NCBI RefSeq assembly: GCF_055900595.2 | Contig: NZ_CM148325.1 | Length of the DNA stretch: 64,000 bases | Direction: 5' to 3' (one strand) | Shown: piece by piece, positions 4,887 through 56,956 of the stretch | How positions within the stretch are numbered: position 1 is the first letter of the stretch | How the letters are laid out: every line of letters starts with the position of its first letter | The notes under the pieces: model-generated | What the model saw: only the letters and a program-made list of their open reading frames with translations | Told to the model about the DNA's origin: nothing | Database searches by the model: none | Translations under genes and position numbers: made by a program

Positions 4887-4979
4887 AAAAAAAACCGGAT
4901 GCGAGGCATCCGGTTGAAATAGGGGTAAACAGACATTCAGAAATGAATGACGGTAATAAATAAAGTTAATGATGATAGC
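4887..4979 (-). ncRNA. micF: MicF antisense sRNA (about 93 nt) divergent from ompC
   Basis: Reverse complement reads GCTATCATCATTAACTTTATTTATTACCGTCATTCATTTCTGAATGTCTGTTTACCCCTATTTCAACCGGATGCCTCGCATCCGGTTTTTTTT, which matches my memory of micF including its terminator hairpin and U-tract. Confidence 0.9.
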
Positions 4980-5134
4980 GGGAGATATTCTAGTTGCGAG
5001 TGAAGGTTTTGTTTTGACATTCAGTGCTGTCAAATACTTAAGAATAAGTTATTGATTTTAACCTTGAATTATTATTGCTTGATGTTAGGTGCTTATTTCG
5101 CCATTCCGCAATAATCTTAAAAAGTTCCCTTGTA

Positions 5135-5195
5135 TTTACATTCTGAAACATCTATAGCGATAAATGAAACATCTTAAAAGTTTTAGTATCATATT
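5135..5195 (+). promoter_or_regulatory. OmpR-binding boxes C1-C2-C3 of the ompC promoter
   Basis: tttacattctgaaacatcta / agcgataaatgaaacatctt / aaaagttttagtatcatatt: three tandem roughly 20-bp sites with the GAAACAT core, about 120 bp upstream of the ompC start. Confidence 0.8.
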
Positions 5196-5298
5196 CGTGT
5201 TGGATTATTCTGCATTTTTGGGGAGAATGGACTTGCCGACTGATTAATGAGGGTTAATCAGTATGCAGTGGCATAAAAAAGCAAATAAAGGCATATAA

Positions 5299-13465: not shown

Positions 13466-13954
13466 TTAGCGGACTACCGCGTTGTCAATTTTCTCTTCCG
13501 CCTTCCAGATGCGGTATTTCACATCTACATTGTCTGGCGTATACACCACGATCGGCAGCTTGCTGTTGTAACGCAGCATTCCAGCATCGCCCAGATACGC
13601 GGTGACAAATTTCTTCTCTTTCTTGCCATCCGGGCAGGCCATCATCGTGGAAACCGGCGAGCTAACTTTATCAAAGACGTAATAATCATAGCCCCAGCCT
13701 TCCAGCGTTTTGCTTTCCAGCTTCCCGCCGAGACGATGCAAATTGCAATCGACTTCCAGCGTCTGACCGATTAACAGTTCTACTTTCAGGGTAGATTCAT
13801 CTTCTTGCGGGGTTAACTGAATCACCTGACGCTTCATGCCTTTTTCAGCTTGCGGATAAGGCGCGATTTTTTCCAGTGGCTGGACGCTCTCTGCCGCCCA
13901 GGCGGAAGTGGTAGCGAAAGCGGCAAACAATACTGCAGGTAGAATGGTCTTCAT
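13466..13954 (-). CDS. eco: Ecotin (periplasmic serine protease inhibitor), 162 aa
   Basis: Signal peptide [20 protein letters not shown]; ecotin-like sequence …[20 protein letters not shown]…; position between mqo and napF. Confidence 0.95.
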
Positions 13955-14231
13955 TGTTGTATTCCCTTCGTCATTTATAGGTTTTCACCGATGATGTCGC
14001 TGAAGGTTAACATATTCATCAGATTTATTAATTTGCTTTATGAATAACTAAAAGAACATTCAGACAATTTTACCTTCTCTTTTAGTGTTAAATTCTGAGG
14101 AGTGGTAAAGCCTTGAGAAATATCTCTGGCGAATTAATCGCTATATAAATATGTTTATAACCATTTGAAATGTGAGCAAAAGCCCGTTTTTGCCACTCTT
14201 CCCACCACTCTTTTGATCCTGCTACAGGTTT

Positions 14232-19598: not shown

Positions 19599-20201
19599 AT
19601 GGGAAATTCTGACCGTAAGCCTGGTCTGATTAAGCGCCTGTGGAAATGGTGGCGTACCCCCAGCCGTCTGGCGCTAGGGACGCTGCTGTTGATCGGTTTT
19701 GTCGGCGGCATCGTTTTCTGGGGCGGCTTTAACACCGGGATGGAAAAAGCCAATACCGAAGAGTTCTGCATTAGCTGCCACGAAATGCGTAACACGGTGT
19801 ATCAGGAATACATGGATTCCGTGCACTACAACAACCGTAGCGGCGTCCGTGCGACCTGTCCGGATTGTCACGTTCCGCACGAGTTTGTGCCGAAGATGAT
19901 ACGCAAGCTCAAAGCAAGTAAAGAGCTGTATGGTAAAATTTTTGGCGTTATTGACACGCCGCAGAAATTTGAAGCTCATCGCCTGACGATGGCACAGAAT
20001 GAGTGGCGGCGCATGAAGGACAATAACTCGCAGGAGTGTCGTAACTGTCACAACTTCGAGTATATGGATACAACCGCCCAGAAATCAGTTGCCGCTAAGA
20101 TGCACGACCAGGCGGTGAAAGATGGGCAAACCTGTATTGATTGCCATAAAGGGATAGCGCACAAGCTGCCCGATATGCGCGAAGTCGAGCCAGGTTTTTA
20201 A
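19599..20201 (+). CDS. napC: Tetraheme cytochrome c NapC (quinol dehydrogenase), 200 aa
   Basis: Four CxxCH motifs: CISCH, CPDCH, CRNCH, CIDCH; N-terminal membrane anchor. Confidence 0.96.
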   Translation: MGNSDRKPGLIKRLWKWWRTPSRLALGTLLLIGFVGGIVFWGGFNTGMEKANTEEFCISCHEMRNTVYQEYMDSVHYNNRSGVRATCPDCHVPHEFVPKMIRKLKASKELYGKIFGVIDTPQKFEAHRLTMAQNEWRRMKDNNSQECRNCHNFEYMDTTAQKSVAAKMHDQAVKDGQTCIDCHKGIAHKLPDMREVEPGF

Positions 20202-20213
20202 CAGGGTTATTGC

Positions 20214-20837
20214 GTGGGTATGCTTGAAGCCAGAGAGTTACTTTGCGAGCGGGATGAACGAACCTTATTTAGTGGCTTGTCATTTACGCTGAACGCAGGC
20301 GAGTGGGTACAAATCACCGGTAGCAACGGCGCGGGGAAGACAACGCTTCTCCGTTTGCTGACGGGGTTGTCTCGCCCTGACGCAGGCGAGGTTCTCTGGC
20401 AAGGGCAGCCCTTGCATCAGGTACGCGACAGCTACCATCAAAACCTGTTATGGATAGGCCATCAGCCGGGGATCAAAACCCGGCTGACGGCGTTAGAAAA
20501 TCTGCACTTTTATCATCGCGATGGCGATACCGCACAATGTCTGGAAGCCCTGGCGCAGGCCGGGCTTGCCGGATTCGAAGATATTCCTGTAAATCAACTT
20601 TCTGCCGGGCAACAACGCCGCGTCGCTTTAGCGCGTCTGTGGCTGACCCGTGCCACGTTATGGATACTCGACGAGCCTTTTACCGCGATTGACGTTAACG
20701 GCGTCGATCGTCTGACCCAGCGTATGGCGCAGCATACGGAGCAGGGGGGGATTGTGATTCTGACTACCCACCAGCCGCTCAACGTTGCTAAAAGTAAAAT
20801 TCGCCGCATTTCACTGACGCAAACGGGGGCCGCATGA
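20214..20837 (+). CDS. ccmA: Cytochrome c maturation ABC ATPase CcmA, 207 aa (GTG start)
   Basis: Walker [10 protein letters not shown], signature [14 protein letters not shown], Walker B WILDEP. Confidence 0.92.
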
Positions 20838-21496
20838 TGTTCTGGCGCATTTTCCTTCTTGAGCTGCGCGTAGCGTTTCGCCATAGCGCCGAAATCGCCA
20901 ACCCGCTGTGGTTCTTCCTGATTGTAATTACCCTTTTTCCGCTCAGTATCGGTCCGGAGCCGCAACTGCTGGCGCGTATTGCCCCAGGCATTATCTGGGT
21001 TGCAGCGCTGCTTTCATCCTTGCTGGCACTGGAACGACTGTTCCGTGACGATTTGCAGGACGGCAGTCTTGAACAATTGATGTTGTTGCCGTTACCCTTG
21101 CCCGCCGTTGTGCTGGCGAAGGTGATGGCGCACTGGATGGTAACAGGTCTGCCGTTACTCATCCTTTCGCCTCTGGTAGCAATGCTACTGGGAATGGATG
21201 TTTATGGCTGGCAAGTGATGGCGCTGACGCTGCTGCTGGGAACCCCAACGCTTGGTTTTCTCGGTGCACCGGGCGTGGCGCTGACAGTGGGACTTAAGCG
21301 CGGTGGTGTGCTGCTCAGCATACTGGTATTACCGCTGACTATCCCATTACTCATCTTTGCCACCGCCGCGATGGACGCGGCTTCCATGCATTTGCCCGTT
21401 GACGGGTATCTGGCAATTTTAGGCGCGTTGCTGGCAGGCACCGCGACATTAAGTCCTTTTGCGACGGCGGCAGCGTTACGAATCAGCATTCAATAA
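20834..21496 (+). CDS. ccmB: Heme exporter permease CcmB, 220 aa
   Basis: Polytopic membrane protein, start overlaps the ccmA stop. Confidence 0.93.
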
Positions 21497-21537
21497 CGCT
21501 GGATTACTGATTTTTGTTCGAGTCTGGTATCGAAACT

Positions 21538-22275
21538 ATGTGGAAAACACTGCATCAACTGGCGATCCCACCACGGCTGTATCAAATCTGTGGCTGGTTT
21601 ATACCGTGGCTGGCAATTGCCAGTGTGGTCGTGCTTACCGTCGGCTGGATCTGGGGATTCGGCTTTGCTCCGGCTGATTATCAGCAGGGAAATAGCTACC
21701 GCATTATCTACCTGCATGTGCCTGCGGCGATCTGGTCGATGGGCATTTATGCATCAATGGCGGTGGCAGCGTTTATTGGCCTGGTCTGGCAGATGAAAAT
21801 GGCCAACCTGGCGGTGGCGGCGATGGCCCCCATTGGTGCCGTGTTTACCTTTATTGCCCTGGTTACCGGCTCTGCATGGGGAAAACCGATGTGGGGCACC
21901 TGGTGGGTATGGGATGCACGCCTGACTTCTGAACTGGTGCTGCTGTTTTTGTATGTGGGTGTGATTGCCCTGTGGCACGCCTTCGACGACCGCCGTCTGG
22001 CGGGCCGTGCGGCAGGTATTCTGGTGCTAATTGGCGTGGTGAACCTGCCGATTATTCATTACTCCGTGGAGTGGTGGAACACCCTGCATCAGGGATCAAC
22101 GCGGATGCAGCAAAGTATCGATCCGGCGATGCGTTCGCCGCTGCGCTGGTCGATTTTTGGCTTCCTGCTGCTGTCTGCCACGCTGACGCTGATGCGGATG
22201 CGTAATTTAATTTTGCTGATGGAAAAACGCCGTCCGTGGGTGAGTGAACTGATACTGAAAAGAGGCCGTAAATGA
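21538..22275 (+). CDS. ccmC: Heme exporter protein CcmC, 245 aa
   Basis: WWD domain WGTWWVWDARL; start set at MWKTLHQL (ORF track extends 8 aa upstream). Confidence 0.92.
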   Translation: MWKTLHQLAIPPRLYQICGWFIPWLAIASVVVLTVGWIWGFGFAPADYQQGNSYRIIYLHVPAAIWSMGIYASMAVAAFIGLVWQMKMANLAVAAMAPIGAVFTFIALVTGSAWGKPMWGTWWVWDARLTSELVLLFLYVGVIALWHAFDDRRLAGRAAGILVLIGVVNLPIIHYSVEWWNTLHQGSTRMQQSIDPAMRSPLRWSIFGFLLLSATLTLMRMRNLILLMEKRRPWVSELILKRGRK

Positions 22276-22481
22276 CCCCTGCATTTGCTTCCTGGAATGA
22301 ATTTTTCGCAATGGGCGGTTACGCCTTTTTTGTCTGGCTGGCGGTGGTGATGACCGTTATTCCGCTGGTGGTTTTGGTCGTGCATTCGGTGATGCAGCAT
22401 CGCGCAATTCTGCGTGGCGTGGCGCAACAGCGGGCGCGTGAGGCGCGTTTACGTGCTGCGCAACAGCAGGAGGCTGCATGA
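22272..22481 (+). CDS. ccmD: Heme exporter small membrane protein CcmD, 69 aa
   Basis: Small single-TM ORF overlapping ccmC and ccmE (ATGA junctions). Confidence 0.9.
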
Positions 22482-22957
22482 ATATTCGCCGTAAAAACCG
22501 CTTGTGGATTGCCTGTGCCGTGCTGGCGGGGCTGGCGCTGACTATCGGTCTGGTGCTATATGCGCTGCGCTCGAATATCGATCTTTTTTATACGCCGGGG
22601 GAAATTCTCTACGGCAAGCGTGAAACTCAGCAGATGCCGGAAGTCGGGCAGCGTCTGCGCGTTGGCGGGATGGTGATGCCGGGTAGCGTGCAGCGCGATC
22701 CCAATTCGCTGAAAGTAACGTTCACCATTTACGACGCTGAAGGCTCAGTGGATGTCTCTTACGAAGGCATTTTGCCGGATCTGTTCCGTGAAGGGCAGGG
22801 CGTAGTGGTGCAGGGCGAACTGGAAAAAGGTAATCATATCCTCGCGAAAGAAGTACTGGCGAAACACGATGAAAACTACACGCCGCCAGAAGTCGAGAAA
22901 GCGATGGAAGCTAATCACCGTCGCCCGGCGAGTGTTTATAAGGACCCAGCATCATGA
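22478..22957 (+). CDS. ccmE: Heme chaperone CcmE, 159 aa
   Basis: N-terminal anchor, OB-fold domain, conserved His region …[12 protein letters not shown]…. Confidence 0.94.
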
Positions 22958-24897
22958 TGCCAGAAATTGGTAACGGACTGCTGTGCCTGGCGCTAGGAAT
23001 TGCGCTGTTGCTGTCCGTGTATCCGCTATGGGGCGTGGCGCGCGGGGATGCGCGCATGATGGCTTCTTCGCGCTTGTTTGCCTGGCTGCTATTTATGTCT
23101 GTGGCTGGCGCATTTCTGGTGCTGGTCAATGCTTTCGTGGTGAATGACTTTACTGTCACCTATGTTGCCAGCAACTCCAATACCCAGCTTCCGGTGTGGT
23201 ATCGCGTAGCGGCAACCTGGGGTGCGCATGAAGGCTCGCTACTGCTGTGGGTGCTGCTGATGAGCGGCTGGACATTTGCGGTGGCGATTTTTAGTCAGCG
23301 TATTCCGCTGGATATTGTGGCCCGTGTACTGGCGATAATGGGGATGGTCAGTGTCGGCTTTTTGCTGTTCATTCTCTTTACCTCTAACCCGTTCTCACGC
23401 ACGTTGCCGAACTTCCCGATTGAAGGGCGCGATCTTAACCCGCTGTTGCAGGATCCGGGGCTGATCTTCCATCCGCCTCTGCTTTATATGGGGTATGTCG
23501 GTTTCTCGGTGGCGTTTGCTTTCGCCATTGCTTCTTTGTTGAGTGGACGTCTGGACAGCACCTATGCGCGTTTTACCCGTCCGTGGACGCTGGCGGCGTG
23601 GATTTTCCTGACGCTCGGCATTGTGCTCGGTTCCGCATGGGCCTATTACGAACTCGGCTGGGGCGGCTGGTGGTTCTGGGATCCGGTAGAAAACGCCTCG
23701 TTTATGCCGTGGCTGGTGGGGACTGCGCTGATGCACTCACTGGCGGTCACTGAACAACGCGCCAGCTTCAAAGCGTGGACATTACTGCTGGCAATCAGTG
23801 CCTTCTCGCTGTGTCTGCTGGGGACTTTCCTCGTGCGTTCCGGCGTGCTGGTATCGGTACACGCGTTTGCGTCTGATCCGGCGCGCGGTATGTTTATCCT
23901 CGCCTTTATGGTGCTGGTGATTGGCGGTTCGCTGCTGCTGTTTGCCGCGCGTGGACACAAAGTTCGCTCACGCGTAAACAATGCGCTGTGGTCGCGGGAA
24001 TCTTTGCTGTTAGCGAACAACGTTTTGCTGGTCGCCGCGATGCTGGTGGTGTTGCTGGGGACGCTGCTGCCGCTGGTGCACAAGCAACTGGGACTGGGCA
24101 GCATTTCGATTGGCGAACCGTTCTTCAACACCATGTTTACCTGGCTGATGGTGCCGTTTGCGCTACTGCTGGGTGTCGGTCCACTGGTGCGCTGGGGGCG
24201 CGATCGCCCACGTAAAATCCGCAATTTATTGATTATCGCCTTCATCTCTACGCTGGTGCTGTCTCTGCTGTTGCCGTGGCTGTTCGAAAGCAAAGTTGTG
24301 GCGATGACGGTGCTCGGCCTGGCAATGGCCTGCTGGATTGCAGTGCTGGCGATTGCGGAAGCTGCGCTGCGTATTTCACGCGGCATGAAAACCACCTTCA
24401 GTTATTGGGGCATGGTGGCGGCTCACCTGGGGCTGGCGGTAACAATTGTTGGTATTGCCTTTAGCCAGAACTATAGCGTTGAGCGTGATGTGCGCATGAA
24501 GTCCGGCGATAGCGTCGATATTCATGAATATCGCTTCACCTTCCGTGATGTCAAAGAAGTGACTGGTCCGAACTGGCGCGGCGGTGTGGCGACTATCGGC
24601 GTAACGCGCGATGGCAAGCCGGAAACGGTGCTGTATGCGGAAAAACGTTATTACAACACTGCAGGGTCGATGATGACCGAAGCGGCGATTGACGGCGGTA
24701 TCACGCGTGATCTGTACGCCGCGCTCGGTGAAGAGCTGGAAAACGGCGCGTGGGCCGTGCGTCTTTACTACAAACCGTTTGTTCGCTGGATTTGGGCGGG
24801 CGGGCTGATGATGGCATTGGGCGGGCTGCTGTGCCTGTTTGATCCTCGCTATCGTAAGCGCGTGAACCCGCAGAAAACTGCGCCGGAGGCTGTATGA
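22954..24897 (+). CDS. ccmF: Cytochrome c-type biogenesis heme lyase CcmF, 647 aa
   Basis: WWD motif [12 protein letters not shown]; polytopic membrane protein. Confidence 0.96.
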
Positions 24898-25451
24898 AGC
24901 GCAAAGTATTGTTAATTCCTTTGATTATCTTCCTGGCGATTGCCGCGGCGCTGCTGTGGCAGCTGGCACGTAATGCCGAAGGGGATGATCCGACCAATCT
25001 GGAATCGGCGCTCATTGGCAAGCCGGTGCCAAAGTTTCGCCTCGAATCACTGGACAATCCGGGGCAGTTTTATCAGGCGGATGTGCTGACTCAGGGCAAA
25101 CCAGTGCTGCTTAACGTCTGGGCGACCTGGTGTCCGACCTGCCGCGCGGAACATCAATATCTGAATCAGCTTTCTGCGCAGGGCATCCGCGTAGTTGGCA
25201 TGAACTATAAAGACGATCGCCAGAAAGCGATCAGCTGGCTGAAAGAGCTGGGCAATCCTTACGCGTTAAGCCTGTTTGATGGCGACGGCATGTTAGGGCT
25301 GGATCTCGGTGTCTATGGCGCGCCAGAAACGTTCCTCATCGACGGCAACGGCATCATTCGCTATCGCCATGCGGGTGATCTCAATCCCCGCGTCTGGCAA
25401 GAAGAGATCAAGCCGCTGTGGGAGAAATACAGTAAGGAGGCCGCACAATGA
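24894..25451 (+). CDS. ccmG: Thiol:disulfide interchange protein CcmG/DsbE, 185 aa
   Basis: Thioredoxin active site WATWCPTC. Confidence 0.96.
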   Translation: MKRKVLLIPLIIFLAIAAALLWQLARNAEGDDPTNLESALIGKPVPKFRLESLDNPGQFYQADVLTQGKPVLLNVWATWCPTCRAEHQYLNQLSAQGIRVVGMNYKDDRQKAISWLKELGNPYALSLFDGDGMLGLDLGVYGAPETFLIDGNGIIRYRHAGDLNPRVWQEEIKPLWEKYSKEAAQ

Positions 25452-26500
25452 GGTTTTTATTGGGCGTGCTGATGCTGATGATCTCCGGCTCAGCGCTGGC
25501 GACCATCGACGTGTTGCAGTTTAAAGATGAAGCACAGGAACAACAGTTTCGTCAGCTTACTGAAGAACTGCGCTGCCCGAAATGCCAGAATAACAGCATT
25601 GCCGATTCCAACTCGATGATTGCCACCGACCTGCGCCAGAAAGTGTACGAACTGATGCAGGAAGGTAAAAGTAAGAAAGAGATTGTCGATTATATGGTGG
25701 CGCGTTACGGCAACTTCGTCACTTACGACCCGCCGTTAACGCCGCTGACCGTTCTGCTGTGGGTGCTACCGGTGGTGGCTATTGGCATTGGCGGTTGGGT
25801 TATTTACTCCCGCTCACGGCGTCGGGTACGCGTGGTGCTGGAAGAGTTTCCTGAACAAAGCGTGCCGGAAGGTAAGCGTGCCGGATATGTTGTTTATCTG
25901 CCGGGTATTGTGGTGGCGTTAATTGTGGCTGGCGTCAGCTACTACCAGACCGGCAATTATCAGCAGGTGAAAATTTGGCAGCAGGCCACGGCACAGGCGC
26001 CGGCGTTATTGGACAGGGCGCTGGATCCGAAAGCCGATCCGCTCAACGAAGAAGAGATGTCCCGCCTTGCGCTGGGGATGCGTACTCAACTGCAAAAAAA
26101 TCCGGGAGATATAGAAGGCTGGATTATGTTGGGCCGCGTTGGCATGGCGCTGGGTAACGCCAGTATTGCCACCGATGCATACGCCACTGCGTATCGCCTC
26201 GATCCGAAGAACAGCGATGCTGCACTGGGATACGCTGAAGCGTTGACACGTTCATCTGATCCCAACGACAACCGCCTGGGTGGTGAACTGCTACGCCAGT
26301 TGGTGAGAACGGACCATAGCAATATCCGTGTGTTAAGCATGTATGCGTTTAATGCCTTTGAGCAGCAGCGATTTGGCGAAGCCGTTGCCGCGTGGGAGAT
26401 GATGTTGAAACTCTTACCTGCCAACGATACTCGCCGTGCGGTGATTGAACGTAGTATCGCGCAGGCGATGCAACACTTATCACCACAGGAGAGTAAATAA
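25448..26500 (+). CDS. ccmH: Cytochrome c-type biogenesis protein CcmH (fused CcmH/CcmI), 350 aa
   Basis: LRCPKCQN motif in the N-terminal domain, C-terminal TPR-like region. Confidence 0.94.
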   Translation: MRFLLGVLMLMISGSALATIDVLQFKDEAQEQQFRQLTEELRCPKCQNNSIADSNSMIATDLRQKVYELMQEGKSKKEIVDYMVARYGNFVTYDPPLTPLTVLLWVLPVVAIGIGGWVIYSRSRRRVRVVLEEFPEQSVPEGKRAGYVVYLPGIVVALIVAGVSYYQTGNYQQVKIWQQATAQAPALLDRALDPKADPLNEEEMSRLALGMRTQLQKNPGDIEGWIMLGRVGMALGNASIATDAYATAYRLDPKNSDAALGYAEALTRSSDPNDNRLGGELLRQLVRTDHSNIRVLSMYAFNAFEQQRFGEAVAAWEMMLKLLPANDTRRAVIERSIAQAMQHLSPQESK

Positions 26501-26544
26501 GAACAAGCCCGATGGTGATGCCATCGGGCCAGACTGATGGCAAA

Positions 26545-26670
26545 GTGCGCTTTGTTTATACCAGATGCGGCGTAAACGCCTTATTCAGCCTACAAAATCG
26601 TGCGAACTCAATACATTGCTCGATCCGCGTAGGCCTGATAAGCGTAGCGCATCGGGCAGTTTTGCGTTTG
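26545..26670. repeat. REP elements between ccmH and narP
   Basis: …ccagatgcggcgtaaacgccttattcagcctac… and …cgcgtaggcctgataagcgtagcgcatcgggc… REP-like imperfect palindromes. Confidence 0.75.
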
Positions 26671-26681
26671 TCATCAATATC

Positions 26682-26714
26682 AGCCCGAGGGTAAATCCAT
26701 CGGGCTATTTTTTT
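26682..26714 (+). terminator. Rho-independent terminator closing the nap-ccm transcription unit
   Basis: agcccgagggtaaatccatcgggct hairpin followed by attttttt; abuts the narP stop. Confidence 0.6.
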
Positions 26715-27360
26715 ATTGCGCCCCACGTTGTTGCAGGAACAGAATAGTGGCCGCCACGCGTGAGCGGACATTGAGTTTACGCAGCAGATTACGAATGTGT
26801 ACTTTTACTGTCTGCTCGGAAATATTCAACACCGAGGCAATCTGTTTATTTGACAGTCCCTGTGCCAGCTCGTGCAGAACATCCAGCTCGCGCTCCGTCA
26901 GCACGCTGAAGGGATCTTCTTCCGCGCCAAACATTTCACGTTCACGTAAGTACTGATTGACGCGTTCGCTAAAGACTTTGCTGCCTTTCGCTCCGGCACG
27001 AATCGCTTCCAGCAACACTTCCGGGTCGCTGTCTTTCAACAGATAACCGTCTGCGCCTGCGTCTATCAGCGCAAAGACATCGCTGGAGGCATCTGATACG
27101 GTCAGGATAATAATTTGCGCGGTAACGCCATCCCTGCGCAAGGCATTGAGGGTATCCAGGCCACTCATACCTTTCATATTGAGATCCAGCAAGATCACGT
27201 CAATATCCAGTCTATTCGCCAGATCGATAGCACTTGCGCCGTCGCCCGCTTCGGCGACCACTTCAAAGCCAGGATCAAGCTCCAGTAACTGACGAACACC
27301 GCGTCGCATAAGTGGATGATCATCCACAATCATCACCTGAAAAGGCGTTGCTTCAGGCAT
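26713..27360 (-). CDS. narP: Nitrate/nitrite response regulator NarP, 215 aa
   Basis: Start at MPEATPFQVMIVDDHPLMRRG (receiver); LuxR HTH …LSNKQIASVLNISEQTVKVHIRNLLRKL…; ORF track start is 10 aa upstream. Confidence 0.95.
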   Translation of the reverse strand: MPEATPFQVMIVDDHPLMRRGVRQLLELDPGFEVVAEAGDGASAIDLANRLDIDVILLDLNMKGMSGLDTLNALRRDGVTAQIIILTVSDASSDVFALIDAGADGYLLKDSDPEVLLEAIRAGAKGSKVFSERVNQYLREREMFGAEEDPFSVLTERELDVLHELAQGLSNKQIASVLNISEQTVKVHIRNLLRKLNVRSRVAATILFLQQRGAQ

Positions 27361-27679
27361 AGTAGTCTCCTGAGGTTTTATTAGAATCATTATGTTTGAG
27401 CGTAGCGTTGGAAACGCTACCAGGCGCGTGAATGTTACCCCATTTTATGTATGGACATGTAGTGAAAAGTACAGCTCAGTAGTTCATCCTCGCATCATTT
27501 TCATTATAAATATGGAATTTTGCATCAACTTCCCATCAAGAAAAACAACTAAAAAATCAATCACAATACTTGTGCATTTCTTTAAACAGTTTTTAAAAAC
27601 TGACTCCGGGTATGGCGCTATGGGTATTTTCAGTACCCAATGCTTTTGACAGCAATTAATTTCATAGGATGAAAGATTA

Positions 27680-30274
27680 ATGCATCACTCTGGTTCTGTT
27701 TCTCTTTGTCGTTCCGCAATATCTGTTCTGGTGGCTACAGCGTTATATTCACCCATAGCATTGGCATCAACTGTTGAGTATGGTGAGACAGTTGATGGTG
27801 TTGTCCTGGAAAAAGATATCCAGCTGGTTTATGGGACCGCCAATAATACGAAAATCAATCCTGGCGGAGAACAGCATATAAAAGAATTTGGTGTAAGTAG
27901 TAATACTGAAATTAACGGAGGGTATCAGTACATTGAAATGAATGGCACCGCAGAATACTCAGTATTAAATGACGGTTATCAAATTGTTCAAATGGGTGGC
28001 GCGGCAAACCAGACAACCCTCAATAATGGTGTGCTACAGGTTTATGGCGCAGCGAATAATACTACCATTAAAGGCGGGCGCTTAATTATTGAAAAAGATG
28101 GGATTACCGTCTTTGCCGCTATCGAAAAGGGAGGATTACTGGAGGTTAAAGAGGGGGGATTAGCATTTGCGGTAGATCAGAAAGCAGGCGGTGCGATTAA
28201 AACAACCACGCGGGCCATGGAGGTATTCGGAACAAACCGTCTCGGTCAGTTCGATATCAAGGATGGTATTGCTAATAATATGTTGTTGGAAAACGGTGGA
28301 AGTTTGCGAGTTGAAGAAAATGACTTCGCTTATAATACTACTGTGGATAACGGCGGTTTACTGGAGGTTATGGATGGCGGGACTGCAACTGGCGTTGATA
28401 AAAAAGCAGGCGGAAAATTAATTGTCTCAACGAATGCGCTGGAAGTGAGTGGTACAAACAGTAAAGGCCAATTTAGTATAAAAGATGGTGTGTCAAAAAA
28501 TTATGAACTGGATGATGGTTCCGGGCTCATTGTTATGGAGGGCACTCAGGCAATTGACACTATCCTTGATGAGCATGCAACCATGCAATCGTTGGGAAGA
28601 GATACTGGTACGAGAGTGCAGGCACATGCAGTTTATGATCTTGGTCGGTCAGTGCAGAATGGAAGCATAAAATATTCCTCAAATGCCATATCTGAAAATA
28701 TGGTTATCGATAATGGTCGCGCTAATGTCTGGACTGGCACAATGGTTAACGTAACAGTCAGAGGAAATGAGGGCATTATTGATGCAATGGCGCTGGAATT
28801 AAATTTTTATACACCGGCTACATTTTTAGGTGACGTGGTGGTTTCTGATGGTGCATCTTTAAGAACGCATGGCGCAGTGGATACCAGTAAAGCAGATGTT
28901 TCTATCGAAGAGAGTTTTTGGGCTATTATTGCCGATATCAATAATATAAACCAAAACACCCGTCTCAATTTAGCAAACCTGGTGATGTCAGACGGAACTG
29001 TCGTTATGATGGCTGAGCCAGTGACTCGTTCATCTGTGACGGCAAGTGCGGAAAATTTCACTACGTTGACCACCAATACCCTATCGGGAAACGGCAATTT
29101 TTATATGCGTACCGATATGGCTAATCATCAGAGCGATCAGCTTAACGTCACCGGTCAGGCTACAGGTGATTTCAAAATATTCGTGACGGACACCGGTGCC
29201 AGCCCGGCAGCAGGAGATAGCCTTACACTGGTAACAACGGGCGGCGGTGATGCTGCATTTACGTTGGGCAATGCCGGAGGCGTTGTTGATATCGGTACGT
29301 ATGAATATACCTTGCTGGATAATGGCAACCATAGCTGGAGTCTGGCAGAGAATCGCGCGCAAATTACCCCTTCAACCACTGATGTGTTGAATATGGCGGC
29401 AGCACAACCGCTGGTATTTGATGCAGAACTGGACACCGTGCGTGAGCGTCTTGGTAGCGTAAAAGGCGTTAATTACGATACGGCGATGTGGAGTTCGGCA
29501 ATTAACACCCGCAACAACGTGACCACTGATGCGGGAGCTGGCTTTGAGCAAACATTGACGGGGCTGACGCTCGGTATCGATAGCCGTTTCTCCCGTGAAG
29601 AAAGCAGTACAATTCGCGGCTTGTTCTTTGGTTACTCTCATTCTGATATTGGTTTTGATCGCGGCGGCAAAGGCAATGTCGATAGCTATACCCTGGGGGC
29701 TTATGCCGGTTGGGAGCATCAGAACGGTGCCTATGTTGATGGGGTGGTGAAAGTTGACCGTTTTGCCAACACCATCCATGGCAAGATGAGTAATGGGGCA
29801 ACAGCGTTTGGCGATTACAGTAGTAACGGCGCGGGTGCTCATGTCGAGAGCGGGTTCCGTTGGGTTGACGGATTGTGGAGTGTTAGACCTTATCTGGCCT
29901 TTACCGGCTTTACCACAGATGGTCAGGACTACACGTTATCAAACGGCATGCGCGCGGATGTGGGAAATACCCGCATATTACGCGCTGAAGCGGGAACGGC
30001 GGTAAGCTATCACATGGACCTGCAAAACGGTACGACGCTGGAACCCTGGCTGAAAGCCGCCGTACGTCAGGAATACGCCGATTCTAACCAGGTGAATGTT
30101 AATGACGACGGCAAATTTAATAACGATGTGGCTGGAACCCGTGGCGTTTATCAGGCTGGGATAAGGTCATCGTTTACCCCGACGTTAAGCGGTCATTTGT
30201 CAGTCAGCTATGGCAATGGCGCGGGGGTAGAATCAGCGTGGAATACCCAGGCGGGTGTGGTCTGGACGTTCTGA
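27680..30274 (+). CDS. yejO: Autotransporter (type Va) outer-membrane protein, adhesin-like, intact 864 aa
   Basis: N-terminal signal peptide (…ATALYSPIALAS…), passenger with degenerate repeats (VYGTANNTKINPGG…, VYGAANNTTIKGGRLII…), C-terminal beta-barrel ending in the OMP signature …QAGVVWTF; passenger region visibly AT-rich. Confidence 0.85.
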   Translation: MHHSGSVSLCRSAISVLVATALYSPIALASTVEYGETVDGVVLEKDIQLVYGTANNTKINPGGEQHIKEFGVSSNTEINGGYQYIEMNGTAEYSVLNDGYQIVQMGGAANQTTLNNGVLQVYGAANNTTIKGGRLIIEKDGITVFAAIEKGGLLEVKEGGLAFAVDQKAGGAIKTTTRAMEVFGTNRLGQFDIKDGIANNMLLENGGSLRVEENDFAYNTTVDNGGLLEVMDGGTATGVDKKAGGKLIVSTNALEVSGTNSKGQFSIKDGVSKNYELDDGSGLIVMEGTQAIDTILDEHATMQSLGRDTGTRVQAHAVYDLGRSVQNGSIKYSSNAISENMVIDNGRANVWTGTMVNVTVRGNEGIIDAMALELNFYTPATFLGDVVVSDGASLRTHGAVDTSKADVSIEESFWAIIADINNINQNTRLNLANLVMSDGTVVMMAEPVTRSSVTASAENFTTLTTNTLSGNGNFYMRTDMANHQSDQLNVTGQATGDFKIFVTDTGASPAAGDSLTLVTTGGGDAAFTLGNAGGVVDIGTYEYTLLDNGNHSWSLAENRAQITPSTTDVLNMAAAQPLVFDAELDTVRERLGSVKGVNYDTAMWSSAINTRNNVTTDAGAGFEQTLTGLTLGIDSRFSREESSTIRGLFFGYSHSDIGFDRGGKGNVDSYTLGAYAGWEHQNGAYVDGVVKVDRFANTIHGKMSNGATAFGDYSSNGAGAHVESGFRWVDGLWSVRPYLAFTGFTTDGQDYTLSNGMRADVGNTRILRAEAGTAVSYHMDLQNGTTLEPWLKAAVRQEYADSNQVNVNDDGKFNNDVAGTRGVYQAGIRSSFTPTLSGHLSVSYGNGAGVESAWNTQAGVVWTF

Positions 30275-30339
30275 TAACAGAAAATAAACAGGCCGTAATG
30301 TGTCGCGGTCTGTTTATCAAATTAATCGCAGATATAAAA

Positions 30340-30372
30340 AAACCAACCGCAATAGGTTGGTTTTCTTGGGAT
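30340..30372 (-). terminator. Terminator of proL (minus strand); may also stop yejO on the plus strand
   Basis: aaccaaccgcaataggttggtt hairpin flanked by A-run on one side and T-run on the other. Confidence 0.7.
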
Positions 30373-30375
30373 TTT

Positions 30376-30452
30376 TGGTCGGCACGAGAGGATTTGAACC
30401 TCCGACCCCCGACACCCCATGACGGTGCGCTACCAGGCTGCGCTACGTGCCG
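30376..30452 (-). tRNA. proL: tRNA-Pro (anticodon GGG)
   Basis: Reverse complement reads CGGCACGTAGCGCAGCCTGGTAGCGCACCGTCATGGGGTGTCGGGGGTCGGAGGTTCAAATCCTCTCGTGCCGACCA; cloverleaf with anticodon loop CATGGGGTG and 3' CCA. Confidence 0.95.
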
Positions 30453-30526
30453 ACTCGTGGCTGCTAATACTACCGTTTTCCACACCGATTGCAAGTAAGA
30501 TATTTTGCTAACTGATTTATAATTAA

Positions 30527-32287
30527 TCAGTTAGCGATAAAACGCTTCTCTTCTGTCAGTACTTGTAATAACAAACTTAACTGTGGTTTTTCATCTTTCA
30601 CTCTTTCACCACGTAAGTTGTAAGTACGGTATTTACCGTTATTGTTCAGCACCAGCGTCTTTTTCGGGGTGGTAATTGCCAGCGTATCGTTATCCGCGGC
30701 GGTAACCCAGTAATGACGGCGTTGAGGGTTGAACAAATCCTGACCTTGCGAATATTCGCTGGCAGGTGTGCTGACATGTAGCAGGCGTTGCATCAGCGTC
30801 GTCATCAGATCGGTATGATCAGTCAGCGCATTAATACGCTGCGCCGGCGTGCCTGGCCAGTGAATCACTAATGGTACCTGCAGATGACCGTGGGACCAGT
30901 CAAAGGTTTCTTCCTCTTCGCTCAGCGGAATACCCCGGCCGGCAGTGATAATCACCACCGTATTGTCCAGTTTGCCAGAATCACGCAGTGCATTGAGCAC
31001 GCGGTTGATCTGGTCATCGACATTGCCTGCCGCCCGGCTATATTTCCGTGCAAATGCCTGCTGATTGCTGTCGTCAATGTTAGTGCCATTGAAAGAGACC
31101 CACGAGAACCAGCGGTTATCTTCTTGTGCGTAGCGGCCCAGCCAGTTGATCCACTGCGTGGCGGTCTGCTCGTCGGATTGGGTACGTACGCTCGGCATCG
31201 AGAAATCTGACAACAATGCCTGGCGATACAGCGGGCTGGTAAAGCCATCTGACGAGAATAACCCCAGCTGATAGCCTTGCTGGTTAAGCGCAGTAATTAA
31301 CGCCGCAGGCGTACGGGTCGACAGAATGCCGTCCATATAGCTTGGCGAGATGCCATAGAACAGGCCAAAGATGCCGTTGTCTGTAGTGTTGCCGGAACTC
31401 ATATGACGTGTGAACGAAATATTTTGCTCAGCAAAACCTGCCAGTGCAGGCATCTGTTTCTCGAAGCGTGAGTAATTCAGGCCATCGACAGTGATCAACA
31501 GCACATTCTGCCCGGTGCCCATATCGCGATAGCGCAGCTCGCTTAACGGATACTGAACGGAAACAGCGTCTGGGTTACCTTGCTCAATGAGACGGCGTTG
31601 ATACTCTTGTGCATCAAGCAAACCATGCTTCTCAAGAAAACGTCGTGCCGTCATCGGGTACGAAAGCGGCAGGTTAGCGCGCTGCATGGTGATCGGGCGA
31701 TAGAAGTTGGCATCGGCCCAGATATACACCACATGCGAGGCAATAAAAGCGATAAATAAGAATGCGGCCAGCGGGCGCGCGAAGCGCCGACGACGCGTCA
31801 GGCTGCGAAGCTTTTGCCAGCTCCACGTCGCAAACACCAGTTCAAGCAATAAAATAACCGGCACGCTAATGAACATCAGCTGCCAGTCGCGCGCCATCTC
31901 ATTTTCGTCTGGGTTGATAACCAACTGCCAGACGATGGGATTAAGATGGAGATGGAAACGAGTAAAGACTTCGCTATCGATCAGTAATAGCGTCATTCCC
32001 GCCGTTGCTAAAATGACGGACAAAAACCTCATCAGCCTCTGGGAGCCGACGATAAAAGTCAGCGGGAAGAGGATCAGCAAGTAGGTGGCAAACACCAGGA
32101 AGCTGAAATGGCCGATAATGCTTACGTAGGAATAAATACGACCAGCAAGCGTTGTCGGCCAGTCGGCGATAAACAGGTAACGGCTGCCAATGACGAGCGA
32201 AAGCAGAATATTGAACAGTGCAAACCAGTGCCCCCAACTGACCATCTGGGAGACTTTTTCACGGTAGCGCTGACGATGAGTTACCAT
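30527..32287 (-). CDS. yejM: Inner-membrane protein YejM (PbgA/LapC), sulfatase-like periplasmic domain, 586 aa
   Basis: Five N-terminal TM helices followed by alkaline-phosphatase/sulfatase-like domain; 586 aa; synteny with yejL and proL. Confidence 0.93.
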   Translation of the reverse strand: MVTHRQRYREKVSQMVSWGHWFALFNILLSLVIGSRYLFIADWPTTLAGRIYSYVSIIGHFSFLVFATYLLILFPLTFIVGSQRLMRFLSVILATAGMTLLLIDSEVFTRFHLHLNPIVWQLVINPDENEMARDWQLMFISVPVILLLELVFATWSWQKLRSLTRRRRFARPLAAFLFIAFIASHVVYIWADANFYRPITMQRANLPLSYPMTARRFLEKHGLLDAQEYQRRLIEQGNPDAVSVQYPLSELRYRDMGTGQNVLLITVDGLNYSRFEKQMPALAGFAEQNISFTRHMSSGNTTDNGIFGLFYGISPSYMDGILSTRTPAALITALNQQGYQLGLFSSDGFTSPLYRQALLSDFSMPSVRTQSDEQTATQWINWLGRYAQEDNRWFSWVSFNGTNIDDSNQQAFARKYSRAAGNVDDQINRVLNALRDSGKLDNTVVIITAGRGIPLSEEEETFDWSHGHLQVPLVIHWPGTPAQRINALTDHTDLMTTLMQRLLHVSTPASEYSQGQDLFNPQRRHYWVTAADNDTLAITTPKKTLVLNNNGKYRTYNLRGERVKDEKPQLSLLLQVLTEEKRFIAN

Positions 32288-32306
32288 AACCTGTTATCTG
32301 TTTCCC

Positions 32307-32534
32307 TTAGTGCGCTTTGTCTTCGTTGATAGAGGACTGTAAGGCGCGGGCAAAAGAGTTGGCAATTGCCTGGCGTTGGGCCGGGGCAATGCTGGTGTTG
32401 ATAAGGTTAGTGACCATGTTGCCTAACACCATCAGGGAAAGGTCGGTCGGAGCCTTATGTTTTTCCAGTACGTTGAGCAGCTCTGCGAGCAATTGTTCAA
32501 CCTGTTCATCACTGTAGCGGGAAATTTGTGGCAT
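32307..32534 (-). CDS. yejL: UPF0352 small protein YejL, 75 aa
   Basis: 75-aa ORF immediately upstream of yejM on the same strand. Confidence 0.9.
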
Positions 32535-32715
32535 AAATCGAAATCAGTTAGTTGATGAAAGGGCAACATATTACCGTAGCAACGGTTTTTTTTCTGCTTT
32601 TTTATGCTTTAAATCATTCTCGTTACGCCGCCTTCTGTAAAATGACCGCCATCTTTTATTGCGTCGCTTTACCGGCGGTGGTTGAATACCGGCCGGTCTT
32701 AAAGGAGAGTTTATC

Positions 32716-33723
32716 ATGAGTCTGGATATCAACCAGATTGCTCTGCACCAGCTTATCAAGCGTGATGAGCAGAACCTTGAGCTGGTGTTGCGCGATTCAT
32801 TGCTGGAACCGACAGAAACCGTCGTTGAGATGGTGGCAGAACTGCATCGGGTCTATAGCGCCAAAAATAAAGCATACGGCTTGTTCAGCGAAGAGAGTGA
32901 ACTGGCGCAGACGCTACGCTTACAGCGTCAGGGCGAAGAGGACTTTCTGGCCTTTAGCCGCGCGGCAACCGGTCGCCTGCGTGACGAATTAGCGAAATAT
33001 CCTTTTGCTGACGGTGGCTTCGTGCTGTTTTGTCACTACCGTTATTTAGCTGTCGAATATCTGCTGGTGGCGGTTCTGAGCAACCTGAGCAGTATGCGCG
33101 TTAACGAAAATCTCGACATCAACCCGACCCATTATCTTGATATCAATCATGCGGATATTGTTGCGCGTATTGATTTAACCGAATGGGAAACCAATCCAGA
33201 GTCGACCCGGTATCTCACTTTCCTGAAAGGGCGAGTCGGGCGCAAAGTGGCCGATTTCTTCATGGACTTCCTCGGTGCCAGCGAAGGGTTGAACGCGAAA
33301 GCGCAAAACCGCGGATTATTGCAGGCGGTTGATGATTTCACTGCCGAAGCACAACTGGATAAAGCAGAACGGCAGAACGTGCGTCAGCAGGTCTACAGCT
33401 ACTGTAATGAGCAATTGCAGGCGGGTGAAGAGATCGAGCTTGAATCGCTGTCGAAAGAGCTGGCGGGCGTCAGCGAAGTGAGCTTCACGGAATTTGCGGC
33501 TGAAAAAGGCTACGAACTTGAAGAGAGCTTCCCGGCAGACCGTAGCACGTTGCGTCAGTTGACGAAGTTTGCCGGTAGCGGTGGTGGCTTGACCATTAAC
33601 TTTGATGCGATGCTGTTAGGTGAGCGCATTTTCTGGGACCCGGCGACCGATACCCTGACCATTAAAGGCACGCCGCCGAACTTGCGCGATCAATTGCAGC
33701 GCCGGACGTCTGGCGGCAATTAA
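32716..33723 (+). CDS. yejK: Nucleoid-associated protein YejK (NdpA), 335 aa
   Basis: 335-aa ORF with RBS aaggagag; sequence [19 protein letters not shown]… typical of NdpA. Confidence 0.94.
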
Positions 33724-46119: not shown

Positions 46120-46686
46120 TTAGCTGCGGCTGAGAACCCGGCGTGCTTCGTTGTAACGCTTCTTCCAGTACGGTTCATTCATGCTGGAAATAATAACACC
46201 ACTGCTGGTGGAAGCATGGACAAACTGATTGTTGCCGATATAAATACCGACATGGCGTCCCGTTGAACCGGCGCGGAACAGAACTAAATCACCCGTACGC
46301 AAATTACTGCGGGAAACAGATTTACCCATTTCCTGCTGTTCGTAAGTCGAACGCGGAAGTTCTAAGCCAAATTGCTCGCGGAATGTACGCTGTACGAAAC
46401 CAGAACAATCGATACCTTTTTTAGTGCTGCCGCCCAGACGATAGCGTACGCCTTTCCAGTCAGCATACTGATCCATAATTCGCGATTTTACGTCGACATT
46501 ACGAACCAGGTTTTCAAATTCATCCTGAGAAGCTTGCAGTGATGATGTTTCACTACCCACTGCACGTGTCTCAGGATGCATATTCTTTGCGGTGTTATTT
46601 GCACTACATGCAGAAAGCAGAACCGCTACTGCAATCGCGGGGATCCCGCGCAAGATATATCTCAAAATCGGTTGAGATTTGACCAT
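46120..46686 (-). CDS. mepS: Peptidoglycan DD-endopeptidase/LD-carboxypeptidase MepS (Spr), NlpC/P60 lipoprotein, 188 aa
   Basis: Lipobox LLSACSAN; NlpC/P60 catalytic Cys in GIDCSGFV and His in GRHVGIYIG. Confidence 0.95.
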
Positions 46687-47098
46687 GTTGTTTGTTTTCC
46701 CTTGAAGTCCTTAACGACAAATATCGTTATAAAAAAATGCCAAGCGACACGAGACTAATTACCTGGGCATGTTGAAACAATTCCTTAAGGCCAAATCTGT
46801 GGACTAACGCACAAAATTATATGCTGTGAGGATAATCTACCGCCGAGGCAAAACGAGTTCGAGATTACCCGATTGGTGCGGTCTTGGCGAGTGGTTTTAC
46901 ATGATTTTTTATAAGAAAAAGTGATACAGAAAGTTAATAAGCGGGATTGGTCAATTAAAGTACGATTGAGTGAAACGCATACAATCCATTCATTTACTTA
47001 GGGAATGATTTTTGTGTTCGATGAAAGAAAGCAAAGGCGCACATCATCAGGAATATCCTTACTATAAAAATAAACCTGATGATGTTAATTACCGTGAG

Positions 47099-47812
47099 TT
47101 ATTTGTTTTGGAAATGTTTGTTTTTTCCCGGTAGTGATTTGTCAAAAAAGGTGATTAATCGATCACTTAATGGCGTCAGCAACATCCAGGGCAAACCAAT
47201 CAATATCACGGTCATCGAACCAACAATGATGTCAGTAAACCAGTGTGCACCAATCATTACTCTGGGAAATGCAAAAACCACAAAAATAATAAGGGCGATA
47301 AGGCCTGCGACTTTGCCGAAATAACGCCACATGAATGCCGAAAAAATAAGCAGCATCATGCCGTGATCGCCGGGAAAGCTGTCTCGTGAGGCATCTTTCG
47401 TGGGGATAGGGAGCAGTTCGCTGACGCGGTTAATATTGGCAAAAGTTAATGTTGGGCTGGCCCGTTTTACAGGAATTAATGCCTGTCCCAGTTGGTTTAA
47501 GACCACTGCAGTTAATAGCATGACGAGGCCAATAATCACGATACGTCGTCGGCCTGGGGCGTTTTCTTTCAGCCAGAAACTCAGCATCAACATTCCCATT
47601 GCCAGCAGTGAACAACCGTCGAAGGCACGATTATTGGTCAATGCAACCAGCCACAAAAAGGCCTTACTTTCGACCAGTTTCTGATTAAAGAAATAAAAAA
47701 TATCCGCATCAATCGGCAACCAGAATCCATGATTAACGGGAATATACCAGGAAAGAAACAGCGCGAGGCCGACAATATTCAACAACACTATTTGCGGCAA
47801 ATTTTTAATCAT
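47099..47812 (-). CDS. lpxT: Lipid A 1-diphosphate synthase LpxT (YeiU), PAP2 family, 237 aa
   Basis: PAP2 motifs (…SFPGDHGMM…, …IGAHWFTD…); start set at MIKNLPQIVLL (ORF track starts 12 aa upstream). Confidence 0.88.
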   Translation of the reverse strand: MIKNLPQIVLLNIVGLALFLSWYIPVNHGFWLPIDADIFYFFNQKLVESKAFLWLVALTNNRAFDGCSLLAMGMLMLSFWLKENAPGRRRIVIIGLVMLLTAVVLNQLGQALIPVKRASPTLTFANINRVSELLPIPTKDASRDSFPGDHGMMLLIFSAFMWRYFGKVAGLIALIIFVVFAFPRVMIGAHWFTDIIVGSMTVILIGLPWMLLTPLSDRLITFFDKSLPGKNKHFQNK

Positions 47813-56946: not shown

Positions 56947-56956
56947 TAAAAGGTGT

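Follow-up and report, generated by a model that had tools for sequence, protein, structure and literature searches.

The closest known counterpart of the locus analysed here is yejO of Escherichia coli (b2190 in K-12), which has the same location, length and domain order and whose common allele is 93% identical at the amino acid level to the protein found here. Antigen 43 (Flu/Cah), a self-associating autotransporter, has AIDA-type repeats and a beta-helical passenger and gives the strongest PDB matches, both in sequence and in fold, although its identity to YejO is about 23-25% and the YejO passenger is shorter. AIDA-I and TibA have in common with YejO the strand-loop-strand repeats of PF16168 and TIGR04415 and a pertactin-like junction, but the YejO passenger is only 30-37% identical to plasmid TibA, Cah and AIDA-repeat proteins, and no heptosyltransferase or glycosyltransferase gene adjoins yejO, whose neighbours are narP and proL. 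Pertactin, BrkA and Vag8 of Bordetella resemble it in the pertactin domain and in the barrel (Vag8 aligns over aa 70-861, and the BrkA beta-domain 3qq2 superposes with a TM score of 0.91 and an rmsd of 2.7 A), but identity in fold alignments is 16-22%, the hosts are different, and the roles of these proteins in serum resistance and adhesion are not implied for YejO. Islands integrated at proL, such as the phage-satellite-like element of E. coli 01_3327, the gtrIC prophage and SPI-12 of Salmonella, share with yejO the tRNA neighbourhood and an atypical composition. Their place is the interval from proL to yejO, and they have an integrase as well as repeats of the tRNA 3' end, whereas yejO sits outside the attachment site and has neither.

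We read the gene in the window (the 64,000-nt stretch of contig NZ_CM148325.1, to which all coordinates refer) as an orthologue of E. coli yejO, coding for a type Va adhesin-like autotransporter and gained outside the tRNA site before the Escherichia species diverged, and assign this reading as a whole a probability of roughly 85%. The gene as such is already known. Its ORF (27680..30274, plus strand; 864 aa and stop) is intact, starts with ATG, has an AGGA motif about 10 nt 5' of the start and codes for a protein ending in VVWTF. A 100% identical protein is deposited at NCBI as "autotransporter YejO", the PGAP name; complete genomes have the same locus annotated as yejO, and 16,859 sequences belong to the main cluster of intact E. 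coli alleles (93% identity). High full-length identity together with the narP-yejO-proL-yejM synteny places the gene in the YejO orthologous group. Scores against the NCBIfam equivalogs stay below their cut-offs (Ag43, 137.7 against 1200; AIDA-I, 70.6 against 1200; BafA, 212 against 700), and YejO is, as judged from these comparisons, an orthologous group separate from all three.

The left core neighbour is narP (26713..27360, minus strand, 215 aa; located by tblastn and by the annotation of K-12, R32_14_1F and E400634), which is divergent from yejO. Mechanically, its ORF extends to 27390 through an upstream ATG, while homology puts the start at 27360; the preliminary description, which gave the locus as 27391-30372 between narP and proL, was right about the position and wrong about this start. 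The adjoining 27361..27469 is conserved in Citrobacter, where it aligns to the empty sites L006 and L008 with homology stopping at about 27469, and is presumed to be the ancestral narP control region. It is followed by the AT-rich upstream region of yejO (27470..27679, plus strand), where 400-bp windows that begin at 27401-27601 have a GC content of 0.375-0.405. As a scan for the sigma-70 consensus upstream of yejO gave no match, we claim no promoter. An 85-aa ORF at 27392-27649 was rejected as a gene, being AT-rich intergenic sequence that is unannotated in K-12, R32_14_1F and E400634. Downstream of the stop codon there is a terminator-like hairpin (30284..30317, plus strand; dG -17.8 kcal/mol, z -4.2) that is also found in E. 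albertii, and then the proL terminator, a hairpin with a U-tract (30336..30367, minus strand; dG -15.8 kcal/mol, z -4.3) recognized also in the Citrobacter alignment. The tRNA-Pro(GGG) gene proL itself (30376..30452; ARAGORN and Rfam) is on the minus strand, so that the yejO stop lies 101 nt from the 3' end of the tRNA and opposite it, in agreement with the earlier placement of yejO beside it. Apart from the tRNA, the Rfam scan of 26500-31000 returned only weak REP-type matches outside the yejO feature.

The architecture of the protein is that of a type Va autotransporter, with passenger and translocator in a single ORF. Pfam identifies two AIDA repeat matches (PF16168; 7e-51), a pertactin domain at aa 432-556 (PF03212; 5e-45) and an autotransporter beta-domain at aa 603-842 (PF03797; 1e-44), and the protein also matches TIGR01414 (2e-110) and TIGR04415 (1.6e-20). 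Residues 1-29 (27680..27766, plus strand; MHHSGSVSLCRSAISVLVATALYSPIALA, followed by ST) read as a Sec signal peptide, as by eye they contain an n-region with Arg11 and a hydrophobic core, with A-L-A at 27-29 as the cleavage motif; AlphaFold2 (AF2) models residues 14-21 as a helix, and the N-terminus after it has low confidence. The full AF2 model, built on an alignment of 78 sequences, has a mean pLDDT of 86.6 and consists of a beta-helix and 12 barrel strands, with a helix at 564-593 between them. It supersedes an earlier run on 10 near-identical alleles that modelled the passenger and left the barrel at a pLDDT of about 25. The passenger (aa 30-562; 27767..29365, plus strand) is predicted as a right-handed beta-helix with short three-strand rungs, mostly at pLDDT 85-98. 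It contains two tandem AIDA-type units of 74 aa (222 nt; 28119..28562, plus strand), visible in the DNA as a repeat with a period of 222 and 71% identity and in the protein as units 53% identical to each other (E 3e-22); the 790-aa allele P0016 is without exactly one of them. The pertactin-like domain (28973..29347, plus strand) would be the autochaperone region of the passenger, and pertactin 1dab matches aa 365-559. Next is an alpha-helical linker (aa 564-593; 29369..29458, plus strand), which aligns with the linker regions of BrkA and Vag8 and in the model would fill the barrel lumen. The translocator (aa 601-864; 29480..30271, plus strand) has 12 long strands and a terminal Phe, the aromatic last residue of the WTF end. 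The top Foldseek matches were the Ag43 passengers 7koh, 7ko9 and 4kh3, and besides BrkA the barrel matched EspP (TM 0.81-0.86); PDB sequence matches were Ag43, TibA, pertactin, Vag8 and BrkA. The kinship with AIDA-I-, Ag43- and TibA-type adhesins, a comparison already proposed in the preliminary description, is borne out by phmmer (4e-38, passenger against Ag43) and by the similarity to TibA, Cah and AIDA-repeat proteins given above, and its account of an intact 864-aa type Va protein agrees with the ORF, the Pfam and TIGR01414 matches and the model.

According to the mechanism that best explains these features, the 29-residue signal peptide would direct passage through the Sec system, and the C-terminal 264 residues, modelled as a 12-stranded outer membrane barrel, would be inserted by the BAM complex, as is established for type Va proteins. 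The helix at aa 564-593 is predicted to pass through the barrel pore, and the passenger (aa 30-562) would be exported and fold from its pertactin-like C-terminal end, probably in this order, into an Ag43/AIDA-like beta-helix, as both model and homology suggest. By resemblance, the helix displayed on the surface would most likely be an adhesin or a self-associating aggregation factor. The AT-rich promoter region and 5' half of yejO suggest that the gene is probably silent in laboratory growth. Adhesion, self-association and silencing by H-NS are attributed to YejO by analogy, and it may be described as an adhesin-like E. coli autotransporter with a putative function proposed by resemblance only. 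In the literature that mentions YejO, we found no experiments on its function; there the protein or gene figures only in three roles: pseudogene control, presence/absence marker and array antigen.

Intact copies of yejO are common. The full-length locus is kept in about 79% of 5,426 complete E. coli genomes. Two other Escherichia lineages at species level have the gene in this position, namely E. albertii and one with 88-89% identity to the window in the flanks. Inactivated copies are frequent as well, and inactivation has occurred repeatedly and independently. In MG1655 the gene is interrupted by IS5K after nt 67 (see also PMC11005336), just as the preliminary description had stated, and without IS5 it gives an 863-aa ORF; other strains have IS1 or IS3 in the gene, 01_3327 has an internal stop, and two deletions within the gene (28152-29158 and 29616-30244) occur in about 20% of genomes. 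The gene is reported to be truncated throughout UPEC (Wells 2010, cited by PMC3426408) and to be missing from ST131 (PMC5654935). In K-12, where it is interrupted by IS5, it is among the least-detected genes, with very low expression and detection in 106 of 3,376 RNA-seq sets (PMC10392735), which would also fit the silence proposed above. The inactivations, the reported losses and the low expression, together with a P853A substitution in the window allele, would suit a decaying, functionless relic whose ORF is merely unbroken so far in the window. We consider such a relic unlikely, since each of the three parts of the gene has a dN/dS well below 1 up to a divergence of dS about 0.8-1.0 (0.13-0.29 in the passenger and 0.07-0.25 in the barrel, including the comparison with a homologue at dS 0.82) and most lineages of E. 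coli, as well as other Escherichia species, have kept full-length alleles. These ratios indicate that yejO is maintained as a coding gene under purifying selection, although it is repeatedly lost in extraintestinal lineages. After its gain, it would have become a mosaic and frequently inactivated surface-protein gene. The finding is correct but ordinary, as thousands of genomes already have yejO in their annotation; the intactness of this copy is real, and the special value once attached to it is weak given how many full-length alleles exist, an identical one among them. What is of practical use is the confident full-length model, the exact domain and insertion boundaries and the evidence of purifying selection despite repeated loss in extraintestinal lineages.

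The composition of the gene is atypical and its presence lineage restricted, as expected of an island. GC content is 0.39-0.44 across 27200-29200 against 0.50-0.59 in the flanks, which supports the earlier claim of an AT-rich passenger and spacer, and the 1.5-kb windows starting at 27301-27501, i.e., the 5' half of yejO with the upstream spacer, have the lowest GC content of the whole 64 kb (0.415 against a mean of 0.512, sd 0.035). GC3 is 0.438 for yejO against 0.571 +/- 0.055 for 49 other ORFs, falling to 0.356 in the passenger (aa 1-430) and reaching 0.551 in the barrel (aa 601-864). Codon usage, also named for checking, follows the same division: the Karlin codon bias of the passenger is 0.464 against 0.258 +/- 0.056 in the other window genes of at least 250 aa, and that of the barrel half is 0.214-0.218. 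The passenger is compositionally foreign and the barrel host-like, a contrast that we have as a minor new detail. The host-like barrel in E. coli counts against import of the whole gene, as simple import does not predict it, and could be taken to mean that yejO was ancestral to Escherichia, Citrobacter and Salmonella and was deleted elsewhere, with no horizontal gain. It would fit this too that all the Escherichia lineages examined have the gene in this position. We nevertheless find such an ancestry highly improbable. The passenger deviates by about 3.7-3.9 sd from the window's genes in both GC3 and codon bias, and in the divergent lineage L087 the whole of yejO is AT-rich (GC3 0.39-0.45 against 0.53-0.63 in the flanks). 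Moreover, YejO-like sequence was absent from all 78 non-Escherichia loci scanned and from the Citrobacter empty sites, and two Citrobacter species have unrelated cargo in the same slot. The scan, based on YejM, took in 80 of 155 loci, without records from E. coli, E. fergusonii and S. enterica subsp. enterica, which limits inference on gain versus loss. In an exhaustive representative search, the nearest non-YejO relatives, metagenomic proteins and plasmid autotransporters of Pantoea, were at most about 43% identical, and tblastn of the passenger against plasmids returned only mis-filed chromosomes and the 30-37% relatives named above, so that neither search identified a donor.

The origin of the gene is also informed by the insertion boundaries. 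Alignment to the Citrobacter empty sites (proL, 207 bp, narP) delimits an Escherichia-specific segment of 2,854 bp (27470..30323, plus strand; GC 0.461), which would comprise yejO with its own promoter region and terminator; the empty sites have about 35 bp of unrelated sequence in its place. The boundary at about 30323/30324 lies 52 bp beyond proL, outside the tRNA and past its conserved ancestral terminator, which in the window is still joined to the tRNA. There is no integrase ORF between 27361 and 30375 and no tRNA-fragment direct repeat of the proL 3' end at the segment, as the preliminary description had noticed. A search for terminal direct or inverted repeats gave nothing above chance level, and the longest word shared between the segment ends is 7 nt, the shuffle expectation. 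The 3' end of proL is a real attachment site in other strains, and elements that use it recombine within the tRNA 3' end and displace the proL terminator to their far end, beside yejO. The 8.8-kb element of E. coli 01_3327 (integrase, RepA, capsid and small terminase) and the integrase-carrying element of the E. albertii type strain have the same attR junction with the terminator displaced in this way; the element of Citrobacter R56 measures 3.3 kb and has a tRNA repeat of 48 nt. By locus, integration at proL is seen in L083, L017 and L009 (L017 with an integrase matching PF00589 at 7.5e-28, L083 with an annotated one). The gtrIC prophage of Shigella flexneri 1c is at proL as well (PMC4924310). 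An AT-rich gene abutting the 3' end of a tRNA that is a true attachment site might be taken for the remnant of an integrase-mediated islet targeted to proL, whose integrase and repeat have decayed, but the ancestral terminator still attached to the tRNA and aligning with Citrobacter, where true integrations move it away, the start of the segment past the tRNA and terminal repeats no longer than chance make this very doubtful, and the classic tRNA-islet arrangement proposed in the preliminary description is not supported. Nor is the islet a recent one, given the same locus in E. albertii and the further lineage. Rather, the segment would have entered a short slot with the proL terminator on one side and the narP control region on the other, in an acquisition older than the split of E. 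coli and E. albertii.

This gap of at most 35 bp, separate from the attachment site some tens of bases off, may be a recurrent, integrase-independent insertion slot, as Escherichia has yejO there and two Citrobacter species have unrelated cargo (a DUF6056 fragment and a Gly-rich protein in one case, a DUF1493 protein in the other) while the elements on either side are preserved. In a third Citrobacter the gap accommodates a colicin-like gene, but between duplicated copies of the terminator.

Two further minor new details set the window allele apart from the common one, aside from the IS5K of the K-12 copy. A hypervariable passenger block of 541 bp (28480..29020, plus strand) has 78-87% nucleotide identity to K-12 against a background of about 96.5%. 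The window's form of this block (match of at least 95%) occurs in 18 of 4,293 genomes, i.e., 0.4% of complete E. coli, and 4,265 of the 4,293 match it at 80-90% (82.8-83.5% in sampled rows). The second is the Ala853 codon (30236..30238, plus strand), at a near-invariant barrel position that is Pro in 75 of 78 aligned autotransporters and in all nine other aligned YejO alleles; P853A could impair the window allele. As it combines a rare passenger class with this substitution, the window YejO could differ from the common allele in binding specificity or assembly. The readings of a recurrent slot and, separately, of a functionally divergent window YejO are tentative, and we give them rather less than an even chance. 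Because of the unusual barrel substitution, a common allele (for example the 863-aa form, or that of K-12 without IS5) would be safer to use in functional work.

The uninterrupted yejO ORF (27680-30274, + strand) codes for 864 aa and is flanked on the left by narP (26713-27360, - strand) and on the right by the proL gene for tRNA-Pro(GGG) (30376-30452, - strand). The 3' end of this tRNA points at the yejO stop codon, 101 nt away, and beyond it follow yejM, yejL, and yejK. A preliminary description of this region identified yejO correctly and gave the right coordinates, length, signal peptide, and VVWTF C terminus for it; the region was well placed, except that its start, 27391, was set by a mechanical upstream ATG of narP, the true narP start being 27360 by homology. 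The gene is an already known feature: NCBI holds a 100% identical protein named autotransporter YejO, and matched Escherichia coli genomes carry the annotation "yejO: autotransporter YejO." When 5,426 complete E. coli genomes were compared, 5,425 matched the region, 4,284 of them over at least 80% of its length, and the commonest allele cluster (863 aa, 93% identity to this protein) has 16,859 member sequences. The IS5 disruption described for MG1655 is correct: IS5K splits yejO (b2190) there after nt 67 (PMC11005336, PMC11677980), and its removal restores an 863-aa ORF. The gene is confirmed to be intact, but this is its usual state in E. coli and does not make it a rare copy.

In composition, the gene is foreign, as had been proposed. 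The lowest GC content of the 64 kb is found in the 1.5-kb windows starting at 27301-27501 (0.415, against a mean of 0.512 and a standard deviation of 0.035), and the GC3 of yejO is 0.438, compared to 0.571 ± 0.055 for the 49 other ORFs. Within yejO, GC3 rises from 0.356 in the passenger (aa 1-430) through 0.471 in the pertactin part to 0.551 in the host-like barrel, so that the gene is a compositional chimera. Karlin codon bias was 0.464 for the passenger and 0.218 for the C-terminal half, the reference being genes of at least 250 aa in the window (0.258 ± 0.056). In a divergent Escherichia lineage (L087), yejO is AT rich throughout (GC3 of 0.39/0.44/0.45, versus 0.53 to 0.63 in the flanks). 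Other short low-GC patches lie at 4400-5200, 13700-14100, 46400-47200, 56800-57400, and 60600-61400, with a minimum of 0.318 at about 4801; the first is probably the rcsD-micF-ompC regulatory region, judging by gene order.

The preliminary description read this arrangement as the classic one for a small, horizontally acquired islet at a tRNA gene. We scanned genomes with YejM as bait (one genome per species; 80 of 155 loci kept) and then mapped where proL, narP, and any YejO-like sequence lie in those 80 loci and in those of K-12 and strain R32_14_1F. Empty sites, consisting of proL, 207 bp, and narP, were found in Citrobacter sp. Cu233 and in a Citrobacter-like MAG. Coming from narP, homology with them ends near 27469; it resumes near 30324, on the tRNA side, which delimits an Escherichia-specific segment (27470-30323; 2,854 bp; GC, 0.461) containing the AT-rich upstream region and the yejO ORF, with a terminator hairpin belonging to yejO (30284-30317; ΔG, -17.8). 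The proL terminator hairpin (30336-30367; ΔG, -15.8) remains joined to the tRNA, an arrangement conserved with Citrobacter. In contrast, true integrations at proL displace this terminator next to yejO. In E. coli 01_3327, an 8.8-kb element coding for an integrase, an Icd-like protein, a RepA helicase, a small terminase, and a capsid protein separates proL from yejO, and its attR (GGCACGAGAG) adjoins yejO, as does the displaced terminator; a junction of this type, with an integrase, is also present in the E. albertii type strain, and Citrobacter R56 has a 3.3-kb proL element with a 48-nt tRNA repeat. As had been noted before, yejO has no integrase, and a search of the segment ends (27470-30323) and for tRNA fragments found no repeats beyond chance. 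With the boundary outside the tRNA gene and the ancestral terminator in place, the tRNA-islet reading does not stand, and the alignments indicate that yejO did not enter via the proL attachment site.

The elements of 01_3327 (L083, 23178-31950) and the E. albertii type strain (NBRC 107761; L017, 11913-20160) are related, span ~8 to 9 kb, and lie at the 3' end of proL, between it and yejO. The former also encodes an Ash protein, and its capsid protein is a major capsid protein; this gene set resembles that of capsid-forming phage satellites. Salmonella enterica subsp. diarizonae (L016, 11912-17558) carries a 5.6-kb proL island bounded by a 31-nt repeat of the tRNA 3' end, with ORFs that by eye resemble a TonB-dependent receptor and a sialidase. 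Escherichia sp. MOD1-EC7003 (L003, 11912-13298) lacks yejO in the 1.4 kb between proL and the contig end, where another element is probably integrated.

The presence of yejO in E. albertii, with the same terminator arrangement, and of an intact 862-aa yejO at the same locus in a lineage with flanks only 88 to 89% identical to the window indicates that the gain predates the divergence of Escherichia species. The gap between proL and narP appears to be a general variable spot: between the terminator and a conserved block upstream of narP, C. amalonaticus ku-bf3 carries a DUF6056 fragment and a Gly-rich protein, and Citrobacter sp. NCU1 a DUF1493 protein, both in the ~30-bp interval that yejO occupies in Escherichia. 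In C. amalonaticus S646 (L012, 12557-14279), the gap gene is pore-forming colicin-like and has duplicated proL terminators on either side. Given the composition of yejO and this variable Citrobacter cargo, a gain in Escherichia is favored over loss elsewhere, although not formally proven. The S646 bacteriocin is chromosomal and has 472 aa with a colicin pore-forming domain (1e-56), and an adjoining 99-aa membrane ORF could be its immunity protein.

A short sequence upstream of narP (27436-27451, TACCCCAttTTATGTA) is conserved in the window, K-12, and Citrobacter and, by its resemblance, is a candidate NarL/NarP 7-2-7 heptamer pair. A stretch of the ccmH-narP gap (26517-26636) is the most divergent part of the flank relative to K-12 (88 to 92% identity), and its weak Rfam matches to naRNA4 and ES036, below the gathering score, are consistent with REP-type repeats.

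Pfam assigns YejO a pair of AIDA repeats (7e-51), with a pertactin domain at aa 432-556 (5e-45) and an autotransporter beta-domain at aa 603-842 (1e-44), and the protein matches TIGR01414 of NCBIfam (2e-110). The AlphaFold2 model (mean pLDDT, 86.6), built on a 78-sequence alignment from an exhaustive search, starts with a signal helix, which is followed by a beta-helix whose short rungs have three strands each (aa 30-562), a helix (564-593), and twelve long strands (601-863), a predicted fold and architecture that show a type Va autotransporter. Foldseek ranked Ag43 passengers first (7koh, 7ko9) and placed the model on the BrkA beta-domain (TM, 0.91; RMSD, 2.7 Å), followed by the EspP, Hbp, AIDA-I, and NalP translocators. 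These placements agree with PDB sequence matches to Ag43 (4e-38), Vag8 (across aa 70-861), TibA, pertactin, and BrkA, which supports the standard type Va route. Following established knowledge of this secretion type, YejO would be exported by Sec, its barrel would insert, the passenger would be exported through the barrel or alongside it, and folding from the pertactin-like end would yield a surface beta-helix. From its resemblance to Ag43 and AIDA, YejO may work like Ag43/AIDA-I-type adhesins, in adhesion or self-association; no reported function was found in the literature searched. It falls below the NCBIfam equivalog cutoffs for Ag43 (137.7 versus 1200), AIDA-I (70.6 versus 1200), and BafA (212 versus 700), and its nearest non-YejO relatives in the exhaustive search reach at most about 43% identity; YejO is an orthologous group of its own.

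Identity to K-12 is about 96.5% in the flanks and 78 to 87% at 28500-29000, and the divergent blocks relative to R32_14_1F are different ones; the yejO alleles are mosaics. The version at 28480-29020 occurs at ≥95% identity in only 18 of 4,293 genomes, while 4,265 fall in the 80 to 90% band (82.8 to 83.5% in sampled rows). Two repeats of 74 aa in the passenger share 53% identity, and alleles differ by deletions of whole repeat units and other indels. Internal deletions at 28152-29158 and 29616-30244 are both found in about 20% of sampled genomes, which fits reports of yejO as missing from ST131 (PMC5654935) and, in a citation of Wells 2010 within PMC3426408, as truncated in UPEC. Elsewhere, yejO has an IS1, IS3, or IS5 insertion or an internal stop, the latter in 01_3327. 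The dN/dS values (passenger, 0.13 to 0.29; barrel, 0.07 to 0.25, including a homologue at a dS of about 0.8; neighboring yejM, 0.006 to 0.027) point to constraint on yejO, but a loose one. At residue 853, where the last barrel strand begins in the model, this protein has Ala, whereas the other nine YejO alleles in the alignment all have Pro, as do 75 of 78 aligned autotransporters; the change could impair this allele and tempers its description as intact. The flanks (20000-27300 and 30500-33700) are about 96.5 to 97% identical to typical E. coli and 99.5% to E400634 (human stool, Kenya), with only eight records at ≥99%, which places the window in an uncommon, divergent lineage of the E. coli group.
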